Shown in pieces: positions 21,170 to 33,070 of a DNA stretch of 33,070 nucleotides; the first letter of the stretch is position 1, and the number at the start of each line of letters is the position of its first letter. The notes under the pieces are model-generated. The model did not search any database. It was not told the origin of the DNA and saw nothing but the letters and a program-made list of their open reading frames with translations. The stretch lies in UHGV virus genome UHGV-1834275. One strand, given 5' to 3'. The translations under genes and the position numbers were made by a program. This DNA comes from a virus.

Positions 21170-23098
21170 TTATTTAAAGAATCCTCCACCACGTCTAGAC
21201 GGACGTACTACACGACCTGTTTTTACTGGTGCTGGTTCTTCTTTATTTACTTCTTTATTTAGTCCTTTCTCTTTTTGTTTGGCGTTGAATTCGCGTAGTT
21301 TGCGGAATGGCTGATTACCTAATTTAGATAGATACCAGTGGAAACATATTAAAGCGTAGTTAAGACAATCAAGCGTTTCATTCCTTGCTGAACTAATTTT
21401 CTTAACCCATACCCACGCCCCAGCTTTAATAACTCTCTTCTCACTTGATACCTGAATAAAGTAATCATCTGGTACTGAATGGCTGAAGTGTATTTGTACT
21501 TCACTACTATTACCACTATCCGATACTGCACGGTTTAATAGTTGTCTAATATTACTTTTCCCTAAGTTTACGTTTAGGTTTATTAGACTATGACCACCAG
21601 CCGTAGAGCCTTTAAAGAGTGGGTTAGTATTTGAAGTACCGCCCTTGATTGGTTTAAAGATTGTCGATGCACTACAATAGCGATATACCGTACTGGTTGC
21701 GTTACCGTTCGAACTATCTACAAAACCTGCAAGTACTTTAAGTGGTTTACCGGATACGGTTTTAAAGTTAGTTTGTGAAAATGCTGTTAGCTTATTCCAT
21801 GCGGGAGCCTCTATTTTAGTACAGTCAATGCTATGAATACTGCGATGATCGAGTACATAAAGATTCTTTTCACTTATTCCTAACGTTGTTACTTCAAGGC
21901 GGTCTAACTGTTGGTCTACACCTAGTACGATTCCTTGACAGTCATCCGGCACGGTATCTATATCTATTGAACTATCACGTAGGTTTTCAAGTAATACTAA
22001 ATCATGATCGGTATTCTCTTTATCAATATAAGGAAGTCCTAAGACGTTATTGTAGAATGAGGCTAGATCAAATGTATAATGTGCTTCGGCAAAATCCTGT
22101 ACTATTGATTTGATCGAGTTAATCGGGGAGTATAAACGGCTAATATGATACCCCATGATATCCGTTACTTCTGGTACTGTAGCTATCCATTCACCCTTAC
22201 GTACCATTCTTACACGTTCGGCTTCTGTGATTACATTATTACACTTAGGACATTGTAGTTTTGCTGTCTCTGCATCTGGAATGCGACGACGACCACCATC
22301 AATAATTTTCCAGTCGAATTTAACATTTTCAAATACTAATTCATGTGCATGATCACAATGTGGGCAAGGTACGTAGAACTTCTGTTTATTACTTTGCTCG
22401 TACTGCTGAGTGATTAAATCATTCTCATCAAGTGGTGTAGAACAAACCATAATAAGAGGGTTGCTAAAAGCCTTTGTACGCTGTTCTGCTAGCTTTAGTG
22501 GGTTCCCTTCATCACCATCTGCATCTACGTTAGATATTTCGTCAAGAAAGATACGGGGGGCTGTCAAGCCTCGCAAATTCGCACTACTACCCAATGTTAG
22601 GAAGTACGTAAAAGTACCGTCTAAGTTTTGTTGTGTCTTATCATTATTAGTATAGTTTTTATCATTCTTATTACTGACTAGATTTTTAAGTACTGCACAT
22701 GCTTCGATTACTGATTGCCATTTACCAGTACGAAACTTACTAGTAGTGCTGGCTGTTGCACCTGCGAAAATTAGATTGCTTGGATCATTTGCGAGGAAGT
22801 AGTACATACTATTCTGTAAAACTGTTGTTTTGAGAAGTTGTGCACTGCTCATCAAAACTATTTTTCTAATTCTTGGATTAGTAATGTCATTTATGGGCTT
22901 GTGCTGAAAGGAAAATAACTTTACGCGTTGTCCTTGTAGTTCCCCATCCGGGAATACTAAATTATTCTCTACCCATTCCGCTGGTAGTTGTCGCTTCGGA
23001 GGTAGGATCGACTTCGCCGCCCTCGTTAGTACCTTCATCATCTTCTGGTAGTTGTTCATCCGTGTATGTTCCTTCATATTCATAGCTACCAATTTCAT
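21170..23098 (-). CDS. Terminase large subunit, lambda GpA family
   Basis: LPAEWVENNLVFPDGELQGQRVKLFSFQ...SAQLLKTT parallels the lambda gpA N-terminus (TAVEWADANYYLP...FQ...SAR); C4 zinc-ribbon CPHCDHAHEL...CPKCNNV as in gpA (CPHCGEE...); C-terminal NETLDCLNYAL resembles gpA NEALDCFVYAL. The true start is probably an internal Met, since the ORF overlaps the small-subunit gene by up to 137 nt. Confidence 0.9.
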   Translation of the reverse strand: MKLVAMNMKEHTRMNNYQKMMKVLTRAAKSILPPKRQLPAEWVENNLVFPDGELQGQRVKLFSFQHKPINDITNPRIRKIVLMSSAQLLKTTVLQNSMYYFLANDPSNLIFAGATASTTSKFRTGKWQSVIEACAVLKNLVSNKNDKNYTNNDKTQQNLDGTFTYFLTLGSSANLRGLTAPRIFLDEISNVDADGDEGNPLKLAEQRTKAFSNPLIMVCSTPLDENDLITQQYEQSNKQKFYVPCPHCDHAHELVFENVKFDWKIIDGGRRRIPDAETAKLQCPKCNNVITEAERVRMVRKGEWIATVPEVTDIMGYHISRLYSPINSIKSIVQDFAEAHYTFDLASFYNNVLGLPYIDKENTDHDLVLLENLRDSSIDIDTVPDDCQGIVLGVDQQLDRLEVTTLGISEKNLYVLDHRSIHSIDCTKIEAPAWNKLTAFSQTNFKTVSGKPLKVLAGFVDSSNGNATSTVYRYCSASTIFKPIKGGTSNTNPLFKGSTAGGHSLINLNVNLGKSNIRQLLNRAVSDSGNSSEVQIHFSHSVPDDYFIQVSSEKRVIKAGAWVWVKKISSARNETLDCLNYALICFHWYLSKLGNQPFRKLREFNAKQKEKGLNKEVNKEEPAPVKTGRVVRPSRRGGGFFK

Positions 23099-23534
23099 TT
23101 AATTGATCATCTATTTTTTCCTGTAGTTTGATTTTTAATTCTAATGCGTCTGCTGATTCGAATAATTCAACATAACTTGACGCGGGAATACTTCTTAATA
23201 CTTGGCGTAGTTGGTAGAAGTATTGGGATAAAGTTTGCTGTACTACTGCTACTGGTATTAGCTCGCCGGATTGCTGACGTAATTCCATTTCTTTAATATC
23301 AGCTTCTGCTTCTAACTTACGTAGTGTTGCTTTTTGTATTTGGCCTTTTGTATCACCGCTTCTTAGTGGTTCGATTACGTTTGCAAGTAACCAATCGTCA
23401 ACTAATTTCTTAGGCCAGGTGATATCTAAACCTTTACCAGACCATATACGGCTAACAGTAGAATGCTCTACGCCGAAACGATCCGCGATTTCTTGCCACG
23501 TGTAGCGGGTTCCATCGTCTTTAATTTTTGCCAT
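22962..23534 (-). CDS. Terminase small subunit, Nu1-like (start placed at internal ATG 23534)
   Basis: N-terminal helix-turn-helix (WQEIADRFGVEHSTVSRIW), then Trp-containing and coiled-coil region (LVDDWLLANV...EAEADIKEMELRQQ) as in lambda Nu1; acidic C-terminus; AAGGA about 10 nt upstream of ATG 23534. Located immediately upstream of the GpA-like gene. Confidence 0.7.
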   Translation of the reverse strand: MAKIKDDGTRYTWQEIADRFGVEHSTVSRIWSGKGLDITWPKKLVDDWLLANVIEPLRSGDTKGQIQKATLRKLEAEADIKEMELRQQSGELIPVAVVQQTLSQYFYQLRQVLRSIPASSYVELFESADALELKIKLQEKIDDQLNEIGSYEYEGTYTDEQLPEDDEGTNEGGEVDPTSEATTTSGMGRE

Positions 23535-23763
23535 TTTGTTTAGTCCTTGTTTAGTACAATAAACCTGTACTTTCCTTTTATTTCGTTTTGTTTGTTTTCG
23601 ATTAGAAATCCCACGAATTTTAAATACAATTCGCGGCGAAAACTCGATTTTTTTGTTCTCAATTAGAGAACCTAAAGTTAAAACTTCACTCACGATTTTA
23701 ATTTTTGATTTGTAATAATATTTATATTATCATTGTATTATAAAGTAACAACAAGGACATGTA

Positions 23764-24702
23764 ATGAAACACATAATCCAAACCAGAAGTGTTTTTAAGG
23801 ATATCGAAGACTCTTTATTTAGTGAGTTGCATTCAGCTAAGACAAGTATCAAAATCTGTGTTGCATGGATAAACTTTGAGCTTTTTGAAAATATATTATT
23901 ATCTAAGGCTAAAGAAGGTGTTGAAGTTGAGATATTAGTTAATAATGATTATATCAATACAAAATTTCTTGATAAAATATCTGATAATATAAAACCATTA
24001 ATTAATCTAATTAAAAACCCTATTAGTAACCACTTAATGCATCATAAATTTTGTATCATTGATGATGAAGTTTTGATTACTGGCAGTTATAATTGGTCAA
24101 AAAGAGCACCATATCATTATGAAAATATAATAATCATCCGTAATGATTTCAATCTAATAATGCAATTTAAACATGAGTTTGCAGATTTAAAATACATGGG
24201 TGCAATGCCAAGTACAGAATTTAATGCATTTAAAGTAACCAAAAATCTCAATAGATTTGTTGTTGGCACATATAGTTCATCTGTGGGGATATATGAAACC
24301 GTCACATTGCAGTTATGGGAAATTGATATTAACAACTTAACTTTTGAACGACATGGCGAAATGGATATCCCTTTCTTCAATTATTTATTAGATATTAATA
24401 CTGATGATCATTATCTTATTGATGAAAAAGAAAGGTACATCGATCTATATGATCAAGAGCGTAGACAGATGGAGACTATCCAAAGTCATTTTAGAAGATT
24501 AAATTGTTCAATTCATGCTTATGGAACAGCAATAATAGCGAACGAGAGCGAATACCTTGAAGGTTATGAAGAGCCTATTCGTGTAATTCACTTCAATTGG
24601 ATAGATATGCGATTAAGCAAAGTATTACCCTCTTCTTTGCCCGCAACTATGGAACTTGAAGGATTATGGCACGAAATATATGCTCCAAATGGATATATTT
24701 AA
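23764..24702 (+). CDS. Phospholipase-D-family (single HKD) nuclease with an uncharacterised C-terminal domain
   Basis: Perfect HxK(x)4D(x)6GSxN motif: HHKFCIIDDEVLITGSYN; preceding KICVAWINFELFENILLSKAKEGVEVEILV typical of PLD/Nuc folds; ~170-residue C-terminal region without recognised motifs; AAGGA 7 nt upstream of the ATG. Confidence 0.8.
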   Translation: MKHIIQTRSVFKDIEDSLFSELHSAKTSIKICVAWINFELFENILLSKAKEGVEVEILVNNDYINTKFLDKISDNIKPLINLIKNPISNHLMHHKFCIIDDEVLITGSYNWSKRAPYHYENIIIIRNDFNLIMQFKHEFADLKYMGAMPSTEFNAFKVTKNLNRFVVGTYSSSVGIYETVTLQLWEIDINNLTFERHGEMDIPFFNYLLDINTDDHYLIDEKERYIDLYDQERRQMETIQSHFRRLNCSIHAYGTAIIANESEYLEGYEEPIRVIHFNWIDMRLSKVLPSSLPATMELEGLWHEIYAPNGYI

Positions 24703-24719
24703 ATAATATTCTATAATTA

Positions 24720-25094
24720 ATGAGGAACGGTATTATGTCTAATTATCCTATACCACTTAGCCTTGAATTTAATAGTCAAGATACTGCTAATATCATTTGT
24801 AGTTATCTAGAAAAAAATCATCAAGATTCTATTTTAAAAACCATATTAAATATAGATTTGTCTTTTATTGATTATCGTGCACAATCTTCTAATTACTTTA
24901 TAATTAATGACGTTGAATATATTGGAGATAATAATTATATTTTATATTATAAAATAAACTACTACATTTATAATCTCTGTAAAGATATGGATATTGATGA
25001 TGACTACGAGACTTCGATAAATTTTACATTGAATAATGGATTTTTAGTATTTGATATAATTGATTGTGAAAGAAATATATCAGATGAAATATAG
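24720..25094 (+). CDS. Small acidic hypothetical protein, co-transcribed with the PLD nuclease
   Basis: Starts 17 nt after the PLD stop; Asp/Ile/Tyr/Asn-rich; no recognised motif; followed by a hairpin terminator. Confidence 0.5.
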   Translation: MRNGIMSNYPIPLSLEFNSQDTANIICSYLEKNHQDSILKTILNIDLSFIDYRAQSSNYFIINDVEYIGDNNYILYYKINYYIYNLCKDMDIDDDYETSINFTLNNGFLVFDIIDCERNISDEI

Positions 25095-25618: not shown

Positions 25619-26344
25619 TTATTTCCTTAATAACTTTTTTAATTCCTCAACTGTCTTCATTTCTTTTCCAATATGAATCATTGCATGACAGTTTGCACAT
25701 AAAGGTATAAGATCTTCAATTGGGTCAATCTTATAGCGTTTACCAATAGTATGTAGTGGCACTATATGATGAACATGAATATAATTTTTTCCGTGACTTC
25801 CATACACTTCTTCAAAATTAAAACCACAGACACCACAACTCAAACCATGTTTATCGATACATTCTTTTCTAGCCTTTGGATCTCTCTCATAGTACGTAGC
25901 AATCCTTTGATGCTTTTCACCTTCATAGTATTCACTTTCTATTTCAGGTGTGAATGAATAGTAATCTTCATCGGTGGCATACCAATCTCCATCTTTTTTA
26001 GTAAGATATTTTCGTACTATTTTCTTTTCAAAATGTTTAATCCTAGCAGCACCATTTTCAGTTGTTTTCTCATGCCTAGTCTGGCTAAAGGTGAAAAGAC
26101 TATACCCTTCATGTAAAATTTTATCTATGTGTTCGATAGATTGTGTATAACCATTTTTTTTGTGTCCATTTACATTTTCACGCCAACTGCTAGCCAAGAT
26201 TAAAACTTTCTTACCATCATCTGATCTAAGATCTTCCCAAGCTCCAAAAATTATTTTTTTGTTGATCTCATCAATAAATGACCAACTCCAGTTATCATTT
26301 TTACATGTAGCACCCAAAGAACGCATGAACTCTGTTCGGGACAT
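25619..26344 (-). CDS. HNH endonuclease (McrA-type HNH) with an N-terminal domain of unknown function
   Basis: C-terminus CGVCGFNFEEVYGSHGKNYIHVHHIVPLHTIGKRYKIDPIEDLIPLCANCHAMIH matches the McrA-type HNH/zinc-ribbon pattern (C..CG...HH..PL...G....N...LC.NCH...H); N-terminal ~170 residues show no recognised motif. Confidence 0.8.
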   Translation of the reverse strand: MSRTEFMRSLGATCKNDNWSWSFIDEINKKIIFGAWEDLRSDDGKKVLILASSWRENVNGHKKNGYTQSIEHIDKILHEGYSLFTFSQTRHEKTTENGAARIKHFEKKIVRKYLTKKDGDWYATDEDYYSFTPEIESEYYEGEKHQRIATYYERDPKARKECIDKHGLSCGVCGFNFEEVYGSHGKNYIHVHHIVPLHTIGKRYKIDPIEDLIPLCANCHAMIHIGKEMKTVEELKKLLRK

Positions 26345-26547: not shown

Positions 26548-27258
26548 ATGCTTAATCTCACTAAATGTAATTTACTTTTGATCGGCACTGTAATAACTCT
26601 ATTACTGATAGCTATTCTTGTAGGTATAAAAATACTATTCTCCGATTCTAATCCAGATCTAGGCAGCTTAGCAGATTGGATCAGTTCTGTATCCGCAATA
26701 GGGACTCTTGGTGTTGCCTGGTTAGCTTATAGTAAAGCTGATGACTACATTGACAAAAAAGCTTCGGAAAGAGGAATTGATATCCTTGTCAATATGGTAA
26801 CTGAATCATTCGTTGCTTATTTCAACTCACTAAATGAAACTAATTTCCATGCTTCAAAACTTGAAAATAAAATGATATTGATTGGCTTGGTTGATGAAAA
26901 AGTAGATTGCAATATTGAACTACAATCATTAAGAGAAAAAATCATAACTCTCTTCGAAAATAGTCATCAAATAGACAAAGATTTTATAAAAATGAAAATA
27001 ATGAAAATATCAAAACCCAGTGATATTTTCTACGATCCAGTAACTAGCGATGATACATTGCAAGCGTTAAAATTAGCATTTCATAAACTGAACACTGAAA
27101 TTTGTGAGAATGAAAATCAATACAACATTAATAATGATTTACTTAGCGAAAATATCAACTTTATTAAAAACACTACCGAAAAGTTAGCCCATGATATTCG
27201 CAAACAGTTCTTTACCTCGCCGAATACTTATAAAGATTATTTTGGAAATCTGTCTTAA
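26548..27258 (+). CDS. Membrane protein with two N-terminal TM helices; paralogue of 779..1519
   Basis: LLLIGTVITLLLIAILVGIKILF then DLGSLADWISSVSAIGTLGVAWLAYSK; shares the GSLADW(L/I)SS loop motif with 779..1519; soluble C-terminal domain diverged. Confidence 0.6.
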   Translation: MLNLTKCNLLLIGTVITLLLIAILVGIKILFSDSNPDLGSLADWISSVSAIGTLGVAWLAYSKADDYIDKKASERGIDILVNMVTESFVAYFNSLNETNFHASKLENKMILIGLVDEKVDCNIELQSLREKIITLFENSHQIDKDFIKMKIMKISKPSDIFYDPVTSDDTLQALKLAFHKLNTEICENENQYNINNDLLSENINFIKNTTEKLAHDIRKQFFTSPNTYKDYFGNLS

Positions 27259-27303
27259 ATTATACGCTATCAAATATTCCATCAACATAAACAAGGAAAG
27301 TAG

Positions 27304-28002
27304 ATGACTACTCTCACTAGAACTTATAATTTACCAAATGAGCTAGTTGAACATTTTTCAAATAACATTGTCTATTTCGAAAAACTTTTGTCTAAGGATT
27401 TTTCTGACTTAAATGTTAATGTAGCACCAGAAGACATTAAGAAAATAGAAAAATCTTTCGAAGTATCACATAGAATACGTGATTTCGAAATCAATCTGTA
27501 TTGGCAAAGACTGAACTTCCTTTGGGCCATTACAGCATTGCTATTTGCTGGATGGGGAACATTGATCTTTAAAATCATCGAATTCAATGGAGGGGAAGCA
27601 CCTTATATTATATTTGCCGCCTTATCATTTCTCTCACTTATAGGTGGGATTGTAACTATATTCACAAGCTTTATCATTGAGGCAGGTAAGCATTGGCAAA
27701 AGGTTTGGGAGTTTCATGTTCACGCTCTTGAACCTTTTGTATCAGGTCATTTATATGCAATTCAGTTTTCTTATAAAAATAAAAAAAAGGCATCTATAAG
27801 TAGAAGCGTAGAAACTTTCAATTATGCTTTGCTGTTTCTTTGGGCATGTTCAGCAGTATTCGCCGCAATCATCCCTTCACAAATAGGGAACGGTCTTGCA
27901 GGCATTATCCAATTAGTTATTTCTCTTCTTATAGTTGGTGCTTTTGTTTATATACGCAACTCTGTTACTAAAAAGGAGTCTATTAAAATTCAGCTTGATT
28001 AA
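27304..28002 (+). CDS. Integral membrane protein (about 4 TM helices) with ~65-residue soluble N-terminus
   Basis: AAGGAAAG ribosome-binding site; hydrophobic segments LNFLWAITALLFAGWGTLIF, YIIFAALSFLSLIGGIVTIFTSFII, FNYALLFLWACSAVFAAII, LAGIIQLVISLLIVGAFVYI; 45 nt downstream of the 2TM gene, same strand; followed by a terminator. Confidence 0.6.
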   Translation: MTTLTRTYNLPNELVEHFSNNIVYFEKLLSKDFSDLNVNVAPEDIKKIEKSFEVSHRIRDFEINLYWQRLNFLWAITALLFAGWGTLIFKIIEFNGGEAPYIIFAALSFLSLIGGIVTIFTSFIIEAGKHWQKVWEFHVHALEPFVSGHLYAIQFSYKNKKKASISRSVETFNYALLFLWACSAVFAAIIPSQIGNGLAGIIQLVISLLIVGAFVYIRNSVTKKESIKIQLD

Positions 28003-29156: not shown

Positions 29157-29633
29157 TTATAGTGAATTTATGTATACCTTGATACTTCCTAAGCTAGTTC
29201 CATCCCTCATCATCTGGTGTACTTTCTTTTTTTCGTGCTGTGTTAGCTGTCGTGCATCACCCTTTAGTGCATACTTGATCATTACGCCGTGATTGTATGC
29301 CTCTAATAGTTCGTGTGCGGCCTTTACTGCAATGTTTCTATAATTATATAGCATTGACTTGTTTAGCGGCTTCTCGTTCCATTTCATGCGATTCTGGCGG
29401 CGAGTATTCACGGTATGTTGTACTTCCTCTATTCCAATCATAGGACACTCTAAAACCAGCTTTAGGATCTCTAACCTACTAACCTTAGTACGGCTAGTGG
29501 TTCCTTCAAACTCTTTAGTAATGACTTCATCAATAATATCTATTGCTTCTGGTGTAAACTGATTCAAAAACTTATAACCTGATAAAACGTTGTGTAAGTC
29601 TGTATTGTCGTATAATTTCTTTTTTCCTGCCAT
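29157..29633 (-). CDS. Hypothetical protein, possible regulator (start placed at ATG 29633)
   Basis: AAAGG about 10 nt upstream of ATG 29633; C-terminal ARQLTQHEKKKVHQMMRDGTSLGSI could be a helix-turn-helix; no firm family assignment. Confidence 0.45.
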   Translation of the reverse strand: MAGKKKLYDNTDLHNVLSGYKFLNQFTPEAIDIIDEVITKEFEGTTSRTKVSRLEILKLVLECPMIGIEEVQHTVNTRRQNRMKWNEKPLNKSMLYNYRNIAVKAAHELLEAYNHGVMIKYALKGDARQLTQHEKKKVHQMMRDGTSLGSIKVYINSL

Positions 29634-29708
29634 AATAAATACCTTTATAAAATGTGTTATGTTCCTTAATGGCGTTATGGTGTTTTCTCCCACCATAACG
29701 CCTTTTTA

Positions 29709-30194
29709 TTAGTTGTCTTTTGCAACCTTTGTATATGTCTGTCTATGTGTACTTCTATTGTACTTTTCATTCATGAATAGCGTGATATTGATACATGACA
29801 TTCCACCAGTGTATAACGCCTTTACTTCATCTTTTTGTACTGGTGTTAGACGTGGTTCATTTTGTTTCTTACGTACTGCCTTACATGAATTTTCACTATA
29901 TGTAATCCACTGCAAATTAGAAATATTGTTGTCTCGTTTATCACTATTGATATTATCTACAACTAATCTTTTATTTGTTTGGGGTTTACTTAGAAATGTT
30001 TCTGCTACGAGTCTGTGTGTCTCTATCGGATATGATTTAGATTTCCCATCCTCATAAACAGTTAAAGTAACTTTATAGTACCCATTACTTTTACTATAAC
30101 TCTGTGTTAGATAATTACCCGTTTTAGTATTGCGTACTTCTCCGTTACTACTTACTTCATAATTTACATATTGTGTTTGTTTCCATAATGTCAT
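29709..30194 (-). CDS. HNH homing-endonuclease-like protein (NUMOD4-like N-terminus plus HNH_3-like core)
   Basis: YEVSSNGEVRN...NGYYKV...HRLVAETF...VDNINSDKRDNNISNLQWITYSEN matches the phage free-standing HNH endonuclease pattern (Y.VS..G.V...G....h.lva..f.....v.H.d..k.nN...NL.w.t..eN), but with Asn where the first His is expected. Confidence 0.7.
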   Translation of the reverse strand: MTLWKQTQYVNYEVSSNGEVRNTKTGNYLTQSYSKSNGYYKVTLTVYEDGKSKSYPIETHRLVAETFLSKPQTNKRLVVDNINSDKRDNNISNLQWITYSENSCKAVRKKQNEPRLTPVQKDEVKALYTGGMSCINITLFMNEKYNRSTHRQTYTKVAKDN

Positions 30195-30272
30195 TTTCTC
30201 TTCCTTGGACTATGGGGTACTGTGCAATCCTTGCAAGTACATGAGTAATACTTTTTACGATAGTATCAAACG

Positions 30273-30494
30273 TTATTGATTTTCGATTAGTAGTTTGAAA
30301 GTTGGAAAATTCATCCTTTCAAATAGTTCTGTATGTAGTTTACGTGTTGTGTGGTAATACTTCATATCTTTATAGAAATCAGAATGGATTACCGTATTAC
30401 AGTACGTTTTACCATTTGGTTTAGATACATCTGCAATTAGTACATTGTCGGTATCGGTACGTACATTGTTAAAATGGAATTCGCCAAAGTTCAT
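30273..30494 (-). CDS. Hypothetical protein, translationally coupled to the upstream RHH ORF
   Basis: ATG overlaps the stop of the 51-aa ORF (TAATG); GGAGGA upstream; no recognised motif. Confidence 0.5.
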   Translation of the reverse strand: MNFGEFHFNNVRTDTDNVLIADVSKPNGKTYCNTVIHSDFYKDMKYYHTTRKLHTELFERMNFPTFKLLIENQ

Positions 30495-30649
30495 TACTTC
30501 TTTCCTCCTAAGATTACTTGTTGATTGAGTAGATATTGTAAAGCGGTACTCATTGATTTTGCTTTCCCTTCATCAATGATACTTTGTAGTACATTGTGTT
30601 GATGTTCGTTTAGACGTGCTGATACTTTGTATTCTTTATTTTCTTTCAT
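30494..30649 (-). CDS. Ribbon-helix-helix (Arc/MetJ/CopG-like) DNA-binding protein, 51 aa; not in the supplied track
   Basis: Translation MKENKEYKVSARLNEHQHNVLQSIIDEGKAKSMSTALQYLLNQQVILGGKK: short beta-strand (KVSARL) followed by two helices, typical of RHH repressors or antitoxins; AAGGA about 7 nt upstream of the ATG. Confidence 0.5.
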   Translation of the reverse strand: MKENKEYKVSARLNEHQHNVLQSIIDEGKAKSMSTALQYLLNQQVILGGKK

Positions 30650-30847
30650 TGATTTTCCTTTTGTCTGCAAATCCTTAAAAATTTCATGTAAAAATCACCC
30701 CGTAGGGATACGGGGTAATAACAAAATCTAAGGAGGAGGGATTTTAATATTCACACTTATTTATGAGATGAGAGCGGTCGCCCCCTTCATATACTATTAT
30801 TATATCACATTTTGCCCATTTCGTCCCAGAAATCGACAAAATCAATT

Positions 30848-31012
30848 TTAAGTGGCTGATTTATATGTATTTATTACAGAAGTCGCGATTATCGCCATAA
30901 TGCATAAGAAGAGATATACTAAAAATGCAATGTATAGATAAACTATCCACCCGGTGATCATAAACACCATACCTACCACTAATACAAAAGCACTGACTAA
31001 CCAATCTAACAT
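30848..31012 (-). CDS. Small hydrophobic membrane protein (54 aa); not in the supplied track
   Basis: ATG at 31012 preceded by AAGGGG; translation MLDWLVSAFVLVVGMVFMITGWIVYLYIAFLVYLFLCIMAIIATSVINTYKSAT (two hydrophobic helices). Confidence 0.4.
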   Translation of the reverse strand: MLDWLVSAFVLVVGMVFMITGWIVYLYIAFLVYLFLCIMAIIATSVINTYKSAT

Positions 31013-31171: not shown

Positions 31172-33070
31172 CTAGATCTGGTCTATCCGATAACGCTCTA
31201 TGAACTCTTTACGTGTTAAACCAGTCGATTCTAATGCAGTGGCTATATCCTTTGGAACTCGACCATTCAAGGCAATACTATATGTATTGCCTTCATACAC
31301 AATGTCTACTCGATCATACTTTCCGGTATTAGGCCAGAATGAAGCCCCACTTATTTCACTATAACCAACCACTTCTAACATCTCATTAGCAGTATTGAAC
31401 AGATCTAAATAACTTTGTTCAATTTTATCAAGTTGTTCCACTGCTTTATTAAATAATGGCAGATTGCTAGTGGTAAGAAATCCTTCATCTCTGATACTTA
31501 CATTATCAACAGAAGAAAATTCAACTTTAAACGCCCAATGTGGTTTTCTATCAGTTCCACCAAAAACTAACCATTCATCTTTAAAATGATACTTTATTTT
31601 TATCGTTATACACCCATCAGTTTTATCAACTATAACACTTTCAATAATAGAACTAATTACTTTCCTTATTTTATTTCTATCCGTATCCTGCATATTTGTA
31701 AAAACCGCCCACTGAATAAGAATCATAAATTCATTTATATCGACTTCTAGAGATCCTTTACCTTTCAGTGAATATAAGCGTTCTTTTAACTTATCAACTT
31801 CCAGAACAGTCTTTTTACGTTCCATATCAAACGCATTTAGTTGAACTGCTAACGCACTAACATTAGGAGCAATTGCTATTGCTTGAGCCATGTTTGTTAT
31901 GCGAGATTCCAGATCAGTTATCAACGTTTCTTTTCTACTGAGGTCTTCTTCTATCACAGTTGTGTCAATACCATCTTTTAGTCTCTTATTCATGTAACCG
32001 ATCAGTAGTGAAATGATCGTACAGTGTTCAACTAATTGTGCTGATATAGACCAGCCAGAACAGTTTTTTTGTAAGTGAACCCCATTAGTACAAATATAGC
32101 GAGCACTGCCATGATTCATGAAAGAATGCATAGTTCCTCCACACTTGCTACACCGTAACACCTGCAACCCTGATAACAATTTAATTTCTTCTACTTTGTC
32201 TTTCTTAGCCTTGAAGTTGTTTTGCTGCTTACGTTCAGCCAAGGTTAAATACTCTGCTTCATCTTTGCATAACCATGGATAGTAGTTATCAAGTTTGTAA
32301 GTAGCACCACCAGCATTGATAGTCCTTTCACCAATCAACGCCCGATTATCACGCATCTTTTTCAATACCTGATAATCCCATTCTTTACCCTTTAAACCAT
32401 TAGGATATTTTTTATCGAGATGACGCTTTACTGTATAGATGCCATTCCCATCTAAAAACATGTCTATAGCTTCGCGAGCGATACTCCAGTAAACGGGATG
32501 TTCTTTTACTGCTTCATATTGCGAACCTGAATCATCTATCCAAAATGGATGGCGACCAACTGACTTAATGTTTACTGGCAACCCTGCTTTATGACGTTCG
32601 ACCAAGGCAACAACATTGCCTATGGTCCTGTTAGATTTCGTTTCTGATTCTTCATTGCCACGGATAAACATCAGAATAGAAATCATCAGATCAGTAGGGT
32701 TTTGTCTGATGGATTCTCTGTTATAGACCTTCCGATCCATTCCTGTGACAATCGTTAGCCCTAAACCAATCAATTCAAGGAATAAACGAAGTGCTTCATC
32801 CACCTGATCGCGTGATAGTCGGTCGAGGTTTTCACAGTAAAGCCAAGAGTCAGACGGTATAGCATTATTTTTTACGGCGTCTATGAAGTCACCCAACTTA
32901 CCCGCCCTATTTTTTCCCCTGTAAGCACTCGTGCCAGGTTCCAAAATTTCAACCATTTCAAGCCCCGCTTCTTCAGCATAGGCTTTCGCTGCCGCTACCT
33001 GCCTGTTCTTGGTTGTTCCTTTTTCTTGGCGATCACTTGACCACCTGATATAGCTATAAAGTTGCGGCAT
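31172..33070 (-). CDS. Large serine recombinase (phage integrase of the resolvase/invertase superfamily)
   Basis: N-terminus MPQLYSYIRWSSDRQ has the catalytic-serine motif (Y.R.SS..Q) of serine recombinases; 632 aa with Cys-rich region (CSKCGGTMHS...CTNGVHLQKNCSGW) and long C-terminal extension typical of large serine integrases. The start codon is at the last base of the window. Confidence 0.85.
   Translation of the reverse strand: MPQLYSYIRWSSDRQEKGTTKNRQVAAAKAYAEEAGLEMVEILEPGTSAYRGKNRAGKLGDFIDAVKNNAIPSDSWLYCENLDRLSRDQVDEALRLFLELIGLGLTIVTGMDRKVYNRESIRQNPTDLMISILMFIRGNEESETKSNRTIGNVVALVERHKAGLPVNIKSVGRHPFWIDDSGSQYEAVKEHPVYWSIAREAIDMFLDGNGIYTVKRHLDKKYPNGLKGKEWDYQVLKKMRDNRALIGERTINAGGATYKLDNYYPWLCKDEAEYLTLAERKQQNNFKAKKDKVEEIKLLSGLQVLRCSKCGGTMHSFMNHGSARYICTNGVHLQKNCSGWSISAQLVEHCTIISLLIGYMNKRLKDGIDTTVIEEDLSRKETLITDLESRITNMAQAIAIAPNVSALAVQLNAFDMERKKTVLEVDKLKERLYSLKGKGSLEVDINEFMILIQWAVFTNMQDTDRNKIRKVISSIIESVIVDKTDGCITIKIKYHFKDEWLVFGGTDRKPHWAFKVEFSSVDNVSIRDEGFLTTSNLPLFNKAVEQLDKIEQSYLDLFNTANEMLEVVGYSEISGASFWPNTGKYDRVDIVYEGNTYSIALNGRVPKDIATALESTGLTRKEFIERYRIDQI

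Follow-up and report, generated by a model that had tools for sequence, protein, structure and literature searches.

The window examined here is the whole stretch of 33,070 nucleotides of the virus genome UHGV-1834275, and it contains a siphovirus-like prophage with genes for a lambda-type GpA terminase, a portal protein, a major head protein, a tape measure protein and a J-like central tail fibre. Its minus strand encodes, at positions 29709..30194, a 161-amino-acid (aa) HNH protein resembling I-HmuI and built of a NUMOD4 region, an HNH_3 core and a C-terminal helical domain, as judged from its open reading frame, Pfam, PHROGs and PDB matches and an AF2 model. The gene starts with ATG, preceded by the Shine-Dalgarno-like sequence AAGGAAG, and its product carries asparagine at residue 81 (the N81 allele). 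A large serine recombinase of 632 aa (31172..33070, minus strand) is encoded about 1 kb away; its Pfam Resolvase and Recombinase domains and the gene order identify it as the prophage integrase, and in related loci its gene adjoins the host gene rimO. A literature search found no earlier account of a prophage that uses a serine recombinase to integrate beside rimO. Since the large terminase subunit is at best 36% identical in amino acid sequence to those of sequenced phages, no named phage group was assigned. Near-identity DNA searches gave no match in the phage collection and only a 50-nt match among complete E. coli genomes.

The integrase gene is separated from the HNH gene by several small features. 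A 54-aa membrane ORF (30848-31012) is followed by a hairpin (30694-30719, minus strand) that resembles a terminator, its T-run being on the gene strand, and then by a small ORF of approximately 51-58 aa (30494..30670, minus strand), whose homologues are 42-49% identical across the prophage family and always lie upstream of the position, or slot, occupied here by the HNH gene. The hairpin suggests that the small ORF, orf73 and the HNH gene form a transcription unit of their own. The small ORF matched no profile, and its sequence pattern may be read as ribbon-helix-helix-like. On the other side of the HNH gene lies a gene for a protein of 158 aa counted from its MAGKKK start (29157..29633, minus strand; start codon placed by the N-termini of homologues), which matched no known family and is only 15-24% identical between prophages whose HNH genes share 61-98%. 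In the early region, about 7.5 kb long, no gene could be recognised as serving replication or as encoding a repressor, and a promoter scan returned nine candidates against 11.3 expected from shuffled sequences, i.e. at or below chance.

The packaging genes are situated further away. The large terminase gene, of GpA type, occupies positions 21170-23098 and the small terminase gene (phrog_57) positions 22962-23693, approximately 6 kb from the HNH gene, and the stretch separating the two includes genes of the opposite orientation. A second, unrelated HNH protein of 241 aa (25619..26344, minus strand; PF01844, Pfam E value 3.6e-8, with matches to PHROGs HNH families) is encoded about 2 kb from the small terminase gene. 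The initial annotation of the HNH gene at 29709-30194 had suggested a domesticated DNA-binding derivative, for example a packaging or regulatory cofactor; the packaging role was rejected in view of the integrase-proximal location of the gene in the early region and of the separate PF01844 protein near the small terminase. The PF01844 protein is the better candidate for a packaging-associated HNH, a role presumed rather than observed. Terminase-associated HNH proteins of the GVE2 HNHE type (PF01844) are likewise phage-encoded members of the HNH superfamily, but the protein studied here belongs to HNH_3, gave no PF01844 match in Pfam, and its gene is not adjacent to terminase or portal genes.

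Two oppositely oriented gene pairs (23764-25094 and 26548-28002, both on the plus strand) lie between the early and the packaging genes. One comprises a PLDc_2 protein (312 aa) and a 124-aa ORF, the other a 236-aa ORF and an 8xMP octameric membrane protein (232 aa). Both pairs look like moron or defence-type cargo, and the cargo at the same position differs in related prophages, e.g. a GTPase-like gene is present in locus L009.

The NUMOD4 region of the HNH protein covers residues 11-45 (30060..30164, minus strand; PF07463, E value 1.3e-8, 35.4 bits against a gathering cut-off of 23.4) and forms beta strands in the AF2 model, while the beta-beta-alpha-metal core covers residues 59-103 (29886..30020, minus strand; PF13392, 32.3 bits against a cut-off of 24.8) and is also delimited by the I-HmuI alignment and the model. 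Both domains thus score above the Pfam cut-offs, and the assignment to the phage HNH type made in the initial annotation was correct. Thirteen PHROGs families match the protein, with E values down to 2e-26, and 12 of them are annotated as HNH endonuclease. In a sequence search of the PDB the sole match was I-HmuI (1u3e, E value 7.9e-9), and Foldseek returned the same entry as the top and only significant PDB match of the AF2 model (E value 3.2e-7, probability 1.00), over an alignment of 129 columns in which the C-terminal domain matched only partially. The model itself, calculated from 48 homologues, has a pLDDT of 92.8 and predicts the beta-beta-alpha unit as strands 77-81 and 94-98 and helix 99-105.

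The C-terminal domain (residues 118-159; 29718..29843, minus strand) is modelled with high pLDDT as three helices (118-129, 134-144 and 151-159). It is kept across orthologues of about 150-172 aa and, although no Pfam domain is called in these residues, it is presumed to be a DNA-binding module by analogy with the C-terminal domain of I-HmuI. The closest described relatives are I-HmuI and I-BasI, the intron-encoded HNH nicking homing endonucleases of the Bacillus phages SPO1 and Bastille. The window protein and I-HmuI share the same order of parts, i.e. a beta domain at the N-terminus, then the beta-beta-alpha-metal core and, at the C-terminus, a helical domain; they differ in that identity is only about 29% and in that the window gene is free-standing in a prophage early region, whereas the I-HmuI gene lies within a group I intron.

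The two proteins also differ at a single catalytic position. Residues 79-90 of the window protein read VDNINSDKRDNN, and in the PDB alignment the I-HmuI segment 71-96, LVVDHKDGNKDNNLSTNLRWVTQKIN, pairs with LVVDNINSDKRDNNISNLQWITYSEN. Within this ungapped stretch, counted back from residue 96 of the I-HmuI chain, D74, H75, N87 and N96 of I-HmuI stand opposite D80, N81, N93 and N102 of the HNH protein. The catalytic residues of I-HmuI are D74, H75 and N96 (PMC12724721); the general-base histidine is consequently the only one of the mapped residues that is changed, to asparagine, while D80, N93 and N102 are kept, the latter two being invariant across the homologue alignment. Codon 81 is AAT in the window (29952..29954, minus strand) and CAT in sister prophage copies, in both DNA and protein alignments, and in the model the first beta strand of the beta-beta-alpha unit ends at N81. 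The replacement of the first catalytic histidine, noticed in the initial annotation from the sequence pattern, is thus confirmed, and it concerns the general base.

A catalytic histidine at a shifted position, the alternative considered in that annotation, was rejected. The His and Asn alleles align without gaps and are one base apart, and protein P0078 of Shigella sonnei aligns ungapped with the window protein and differs from it only at residue 81. The other conserved histidine, H60 (in the motif HRLVA), is equally kept in homologues that have the catalytic one.

The distribution of the substitution indicates its age. Each of the 47 other homologues in the alignment (26-86% identity) has histidine in this column. 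The same holds for 477 of 499 aligned modules from 230 proteins, among which the only single-module proteins that are devoid of it belong to the allele group of the window; the underlying library search returned 150 representatives. Asn81 is confined to one allele group at least 97% identical to the window protein. Within the corresponding 90%-identity cluster histidine is found in P0078, as well as in P0074, P0076, P0077 and P0080. At the DNA level, nucleotide 241 of the gene is A in the window, L001, L003 and L013-L015, and C in L007-L010, and the HNH gene of the Shigella copies L007 and L008 is one base away from that of the window, at this very nucleotide (CAT against AAT). From these alignments, H81N is a very recent C-to-A point mutation, present in some and absent from others of the near-identical copies of one prophage. 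The substitution is therefore not clade-wide, as an anciently domesticated derivative would require. The intact N81 protein was indexed in 56 collection blocks, versus 23 contigs read for the commonest His allele; that N81 is the most often sampled form in its close allele group could reflect selection rather than the sampling of common host lineages.

A derivative of the N81 allele has accumulated a further defect. In L013-L015 the N81 codon is accompanied by C22T, which converts Q8 into a TAA stop, and by A126T. This Q8stop form was found on eight contigs, another host species included. Of its carriers, L013 (CP126295.1) is only a remnant, in which the prophage DNA past the large terminase gene is missing and host bssR/yliI follows directly, and L015 (CP133814.1) contains an additional insertion, approximately 1.2 kb long, on the downstream side of the early genes. 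The prophage DNA is highly uniform, being at least 99.86% identical over 9 kb among the N81 copies compared and approximately 99.7% identical in the His-bearing copy L016 of Pseudocitrobacter faecalis.

The neighbouring host DNA is much more variable. While rimO differs by 0.4-1.3% among the E. coli/Shigella copies, its identity is 84.5% for L015 and 83.9% for L016, and 85.8% between these two. Prophages at least 99.7% identical to each other thus reside in three host backgrounds, i.e. E. coli/Shigella, Pseudocitrobacter faecalis and a third enterobacterium (CP133814.1), and the allele combining the stop at codon 8 with N81 is common to two of the three (L013 and L014 in E. coli, and the species of L015). 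Because phages with a null allele still reached new hosts, the HNH protein would be dispensable for infection and integration and, judging from these sequences, its gene appears dispensable for the spread of the phage. The rise and spread of Q8stop on the N81 background is what relaxed constraint, and not domestication, would be expected to produce.

The HNH gene occupies a well-delimited position, whose edges are conserved independently of its content. The upstream edge is a conserved non-coding element (30195..30272, minus strand) shared by related loci and containing GATACTATCGTAAAAAGTATTA and an imperfect palindrome; it is common to L020, L062, L073 and L075-L089, though the proteins that fill the slot are unrelated. 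This element may be an operator, a promoter or a nuclease target. It carries TTGATACTATCGTAAAAAGTATTA, and the imperfect palindrome reads GTACTTGCAAGGATTGCACAGTAC.

The downstream edge is a hairpin with a perfect 12-bp stem directly 3' of the HNH stop codon (29671..29702, not assigned to either strand). Its structure, though not its sequence, is kept in L020, L023, L025 and L027; in L062 and L073, where the occupant is unrelated, the hairpin after it is almost unchanged. In the window the arrangement after the occupant's stop is TAATAA and the hairpin, and in every family member it is TAA(A)n and a GC-rich hairpin, as seen in the window, L009, L020, L023, L025, L027, L062 and L073. The T-run is present only on the antisense (plus) strand, so the hairpin would be an intrinsic terminator for antisense transcription only; it could be a putative binding or target site. 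Further downstream, the leader and start region of the next gene, CATTTTATAAAGGTATTTATTATGGCA (29628..29654, minus strand), is conserved in the alignment as a stretch of about 27 nt running into the ATG of that gene in most family members. A single copy of the leader motif was found in each of 21 out of 28 loci, as in the window.

A 22-mer of the upstream element retrieved 18 loci from IMG/VR and metagenomes, and in each of them the slot was filled. Its occupants were (i) members of the NUMOD4/HNH_3 family in five loci, with histidine present in the four where the position was covered, (ii) a distant 171-aa HNH_3-like protein with this histidine in one locus, a 181-aa relative of which fills the slot of L027, and (iii) an unrelated 161-171-aa family with the motif W[DE][VI]DKD, here called type B, in the remaining 12. 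Searches with two conserved flank motifs in IMG/VR, and with one in metagenomes, found no empty slot; the shorter downstream motif matched mostly unrelated contigs.

Type B proteins, 161-216 aa long in the wider set (L017:8549-9199, L062:602-1093, L073:4908-5399, L075, L076, L080, L081 and L084-L089), share the invariant motifs W..DKD, YS, VP..N.LF and GV…T..(E)AH and have no invariant histidine near DKD. They match PHROG 953/374, annotated as 'HNH endonuclease', and gave no match to Pfam and NCBIfam models. No distant relationship to NUMOD4/HNH_3 was found: hhalign against the homologue alignment, run twice, was negative, and a PDB profile search produced only non-significant AP2/ERF matches in the C-terminus (E values 0.34 to 1.1). 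From these patterns, type B may be an HNH-AP2-type protein without an invariant histidine at the DKD motif.

The same downstream gene types pair with either type of occupant, which argues that the occupant is exchanged independently of its flanks. In L009 the HNH protein is 97.5% identical to that of the window, but the product of the downstream gene is only 15% identical; the two loci are 98% identical from the integrase through the HNH gene, and the similarity collapses about 40-90 nt after the HNH stop codon. Orthologues with 61-70% identity reside at the same position, each after an ORF of about 50 aa, in prophages of Kluyvera, Serratia and another E. coli/Enterobacter prophage. In the first two the HNH gene is followed by a 'MA.KK' protein of approximately 155-180 aa, and in the third by an unrelated 465-aa protein. 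With these identities the HNH protein is the best conserved early protein of the family, its neighbours reaching 15-49% (integrases 21-25%, the small ORF 42-49% and the downstream protein 15-24%).

Taking these observations into account, we consider it reasonably probable that the gene is a free-standing I-HmuI-type nuclease cassette, of which the window contains a recent loss-of-catalysis allele at the start of its decay and not an anciently re-purposed protein. According to this model, the prophage is a temperate, siphovirus-like element of Enterobacteriaceae with rimO as its neighbour after integration, and the gene would be a cassette of its early region that can be exchanged. By homology with I-HmuI, His81 of the ancestral form would activate the water molecule for cleavage of one DNA strand, close to a long recognition site. 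In the window copy a very recent change of one base, C to A, would then have converted His81 into asparagine. To judge from general-base mutants of other HNH enzymes, the resulting protein would still fold and probably bind DNA, and would no longer cut it. A derived lineage would have added the stop at codon 8, and the continued spread of its carriers between hosts would mean that the nuclease is dispensable for the phage life cycle.

The loss of activity is predicted from the substitution of the general base, which makes the N81 protein probably not an active nuclease. In the first-His mutants GVE2 HNHE H93A, ColE7 H545A and EheA H116A cleavage is abolished, and the CD spectrum of GVE2 H93A is described by the authors as unchanged (PMC5304195). 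To judge from the titles of PDB entries, the general-base mutants H98A and H98Q of I-PpoI were crystallised on DNA. By analogy, the N81 protein is expected to fold without cutting, with DNA binding probably retained. Thus the initial annotation stands in so far as it described an I-HmuI-like protein with a degenerate site, probably inactive as a nuclease; its further step to a domesticated DNA-binding derivative is not supported, since histidine is kept in all of the other homologues and in near-identical prophage copies, and a nonsense allele has already arisen and spread on the N81 background.

The slot protein may have a useful role, as a nickase or as a DNA-binding factor. None of the 18 loci fished had an empty slot, and no other early protein of the family is as well conserved as the HNH protein; a useful phage function fits these two facts at least as well as a purely selfish element would. 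Two other readings start from here. One, which we regard as unlikely, is that the N81 protein is a binding-only variant kept by selection, e.g. for regulating the early operon or for shielding the target site of the protein itself. It would account for the intact N81 ORF in most of the sampled copies and for the high frequency with which this allele was sampled, as well as for the preservation of all other active-site and fold-defining residues in a confident model; type B, with its invariant DKD, no invariant histidine nearby and a weakly AP2-like C-terminus, also hints that the slot may supply DNA binding rather than cutting. On the other hand, N81 shows no compensatory or additional changes and is one residue away from P0078, which leaves no time for adaptation. 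Moreover, orthologues at 45-86% identity all keep the histidine, and the nonsense allele on the N81 background has spread to another host species.

The other reading, in our estimate quite unlikely, holds that the slot protein is a working phage component, such as a site-specific nickase or a DNA-binding factor acting in early control or at the start of replication, and that N81 marks defective or hypomorphic, 'grounded' prophages. A filled slot in every related locus examined, a conservation of the HNH protein above that of the integrase and of the products of the small upstream ORF and the downstream gene, and the lack of recognisable replication or repressor genes in the early region are all in its favour, and some carriers of N81 with the stop are visibly degraded, i.e. 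by the deletion in L013 and the insertion in L015. However, phages with the null allele reached a host whose rimO is about 85% identical, so the protein is not essential for infection and integration, and the replacement of one family by an unrelated one in the same slot is typical of mobile nuclease genes (PMC12724721).

A related possibility, which we consider decidedly improbable, is that the slot between the small upstream ORF and the 'MAGKK' gene is obligatorily filled. Unrelated proteins derived from homing endonucleases, i.e. I-HmuI-like ones with an intact site and 'DKD'/AP2-like ones without an invariant histidine at that motif, would be interchangeable in it, their sequence-specific DNA binding having been taken over by the phage to control the early operon or to recognise an origin at the conserved flanking palindromes or hairpin. 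N81 would then be a naturally nuclease-dead but functional version. It is very unlikely that the N81 enzyme is still active, with the asparagine, a neighbouring residue or a metal-bound hydroxide replacing the general base: D80 and N102, the metal ligands, are indeed intact, as is the structural N93, and GVE2 HNHE variants N109A and H118A keep partial activity at high Mn2+ (PMC5304195), but the first-His mutants of GVE2 HNHE, ColE7 and EheA were inactive at all Mn2+ concentrations tested (PMC5304195), and the predominance of histidine among the aligned modules also speaks against it. A sequencing or assembly artefact, or a chance ORF, can practically be dismissed, because the identical protein, with its ORF intact, is encoded on 24 contigs that were assembled independently and come from various samples and sources (ENA, Logan and NCBI) and has strong profile and structure matches.

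The favoured reading, a nuclease cassette entering decay, has parallels in other phages. The free-standing I-HmuI-like HNH genes of the lactococcal Skunavirus are likewise small and located at fixed insertion sites (PMC12724721); different HNH genes can share one site there, truncated or incomplete copies are common, and the catalytic triad of I-HmuI serves as the reference for them too (PMC12724721). Those phages, however, are virulent, infect Gram-positive hosts and vary by presence or absence of the genes, whereas the prophage studied here is temperate and enterobacterial, its slot was occupied in every locus recovered, and its defect consists of one missense change. Nuclease genes have also been described at boundaries where phages exchange DNA (Barth, Dunham and Seed 2023, PMC10448857), and the HNH gene lies exactly at the mosaic junction revealed by the comparison of the window with L009. 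That work concerns mainly T5orf172 and other HEG families of lytic phages.

The protein family, its fold, its mechanism and the pattern of decay were already known, and N81 is a new allele. A missense change of the catalytic histidine in a phage HNH gene is predicted by the known cycle of gain, decay and loss of selfish nuclease genes, and H81N is of little importance taken alone. Its value lies in the clean natural series to which it belongs: almost identical phage copies carry three forms of the gene, i.e. with the active site intact, with His81Asn, and with His81Asn and an early stop. The series constitutes ready isogenic material for studies of the role of an I-HmuI-like nuclease in a temperate phage and of DNA binding after the loss of catalysis, and it also bears on whether drive or function keeps the slot filled. 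It calls for some caution in annotation as well, in that NCBI names the protein 'HNH endonuclease' or 'HNH endonuclease signature motif containing protein', though the N81 form probably cannot cut.

The strand opposite to the HNH gene contains a 114-aa ORF (29713-30057, plus strand), which is most likely spurious. Many of the top matches in the library search (among proteins P0084-P0230) were large proteins of 300-966 aa with two to six tandem NUMOD4-HNH_3 modules, and in these tandem proteins the catalytic histidine is missing from some of the modules.
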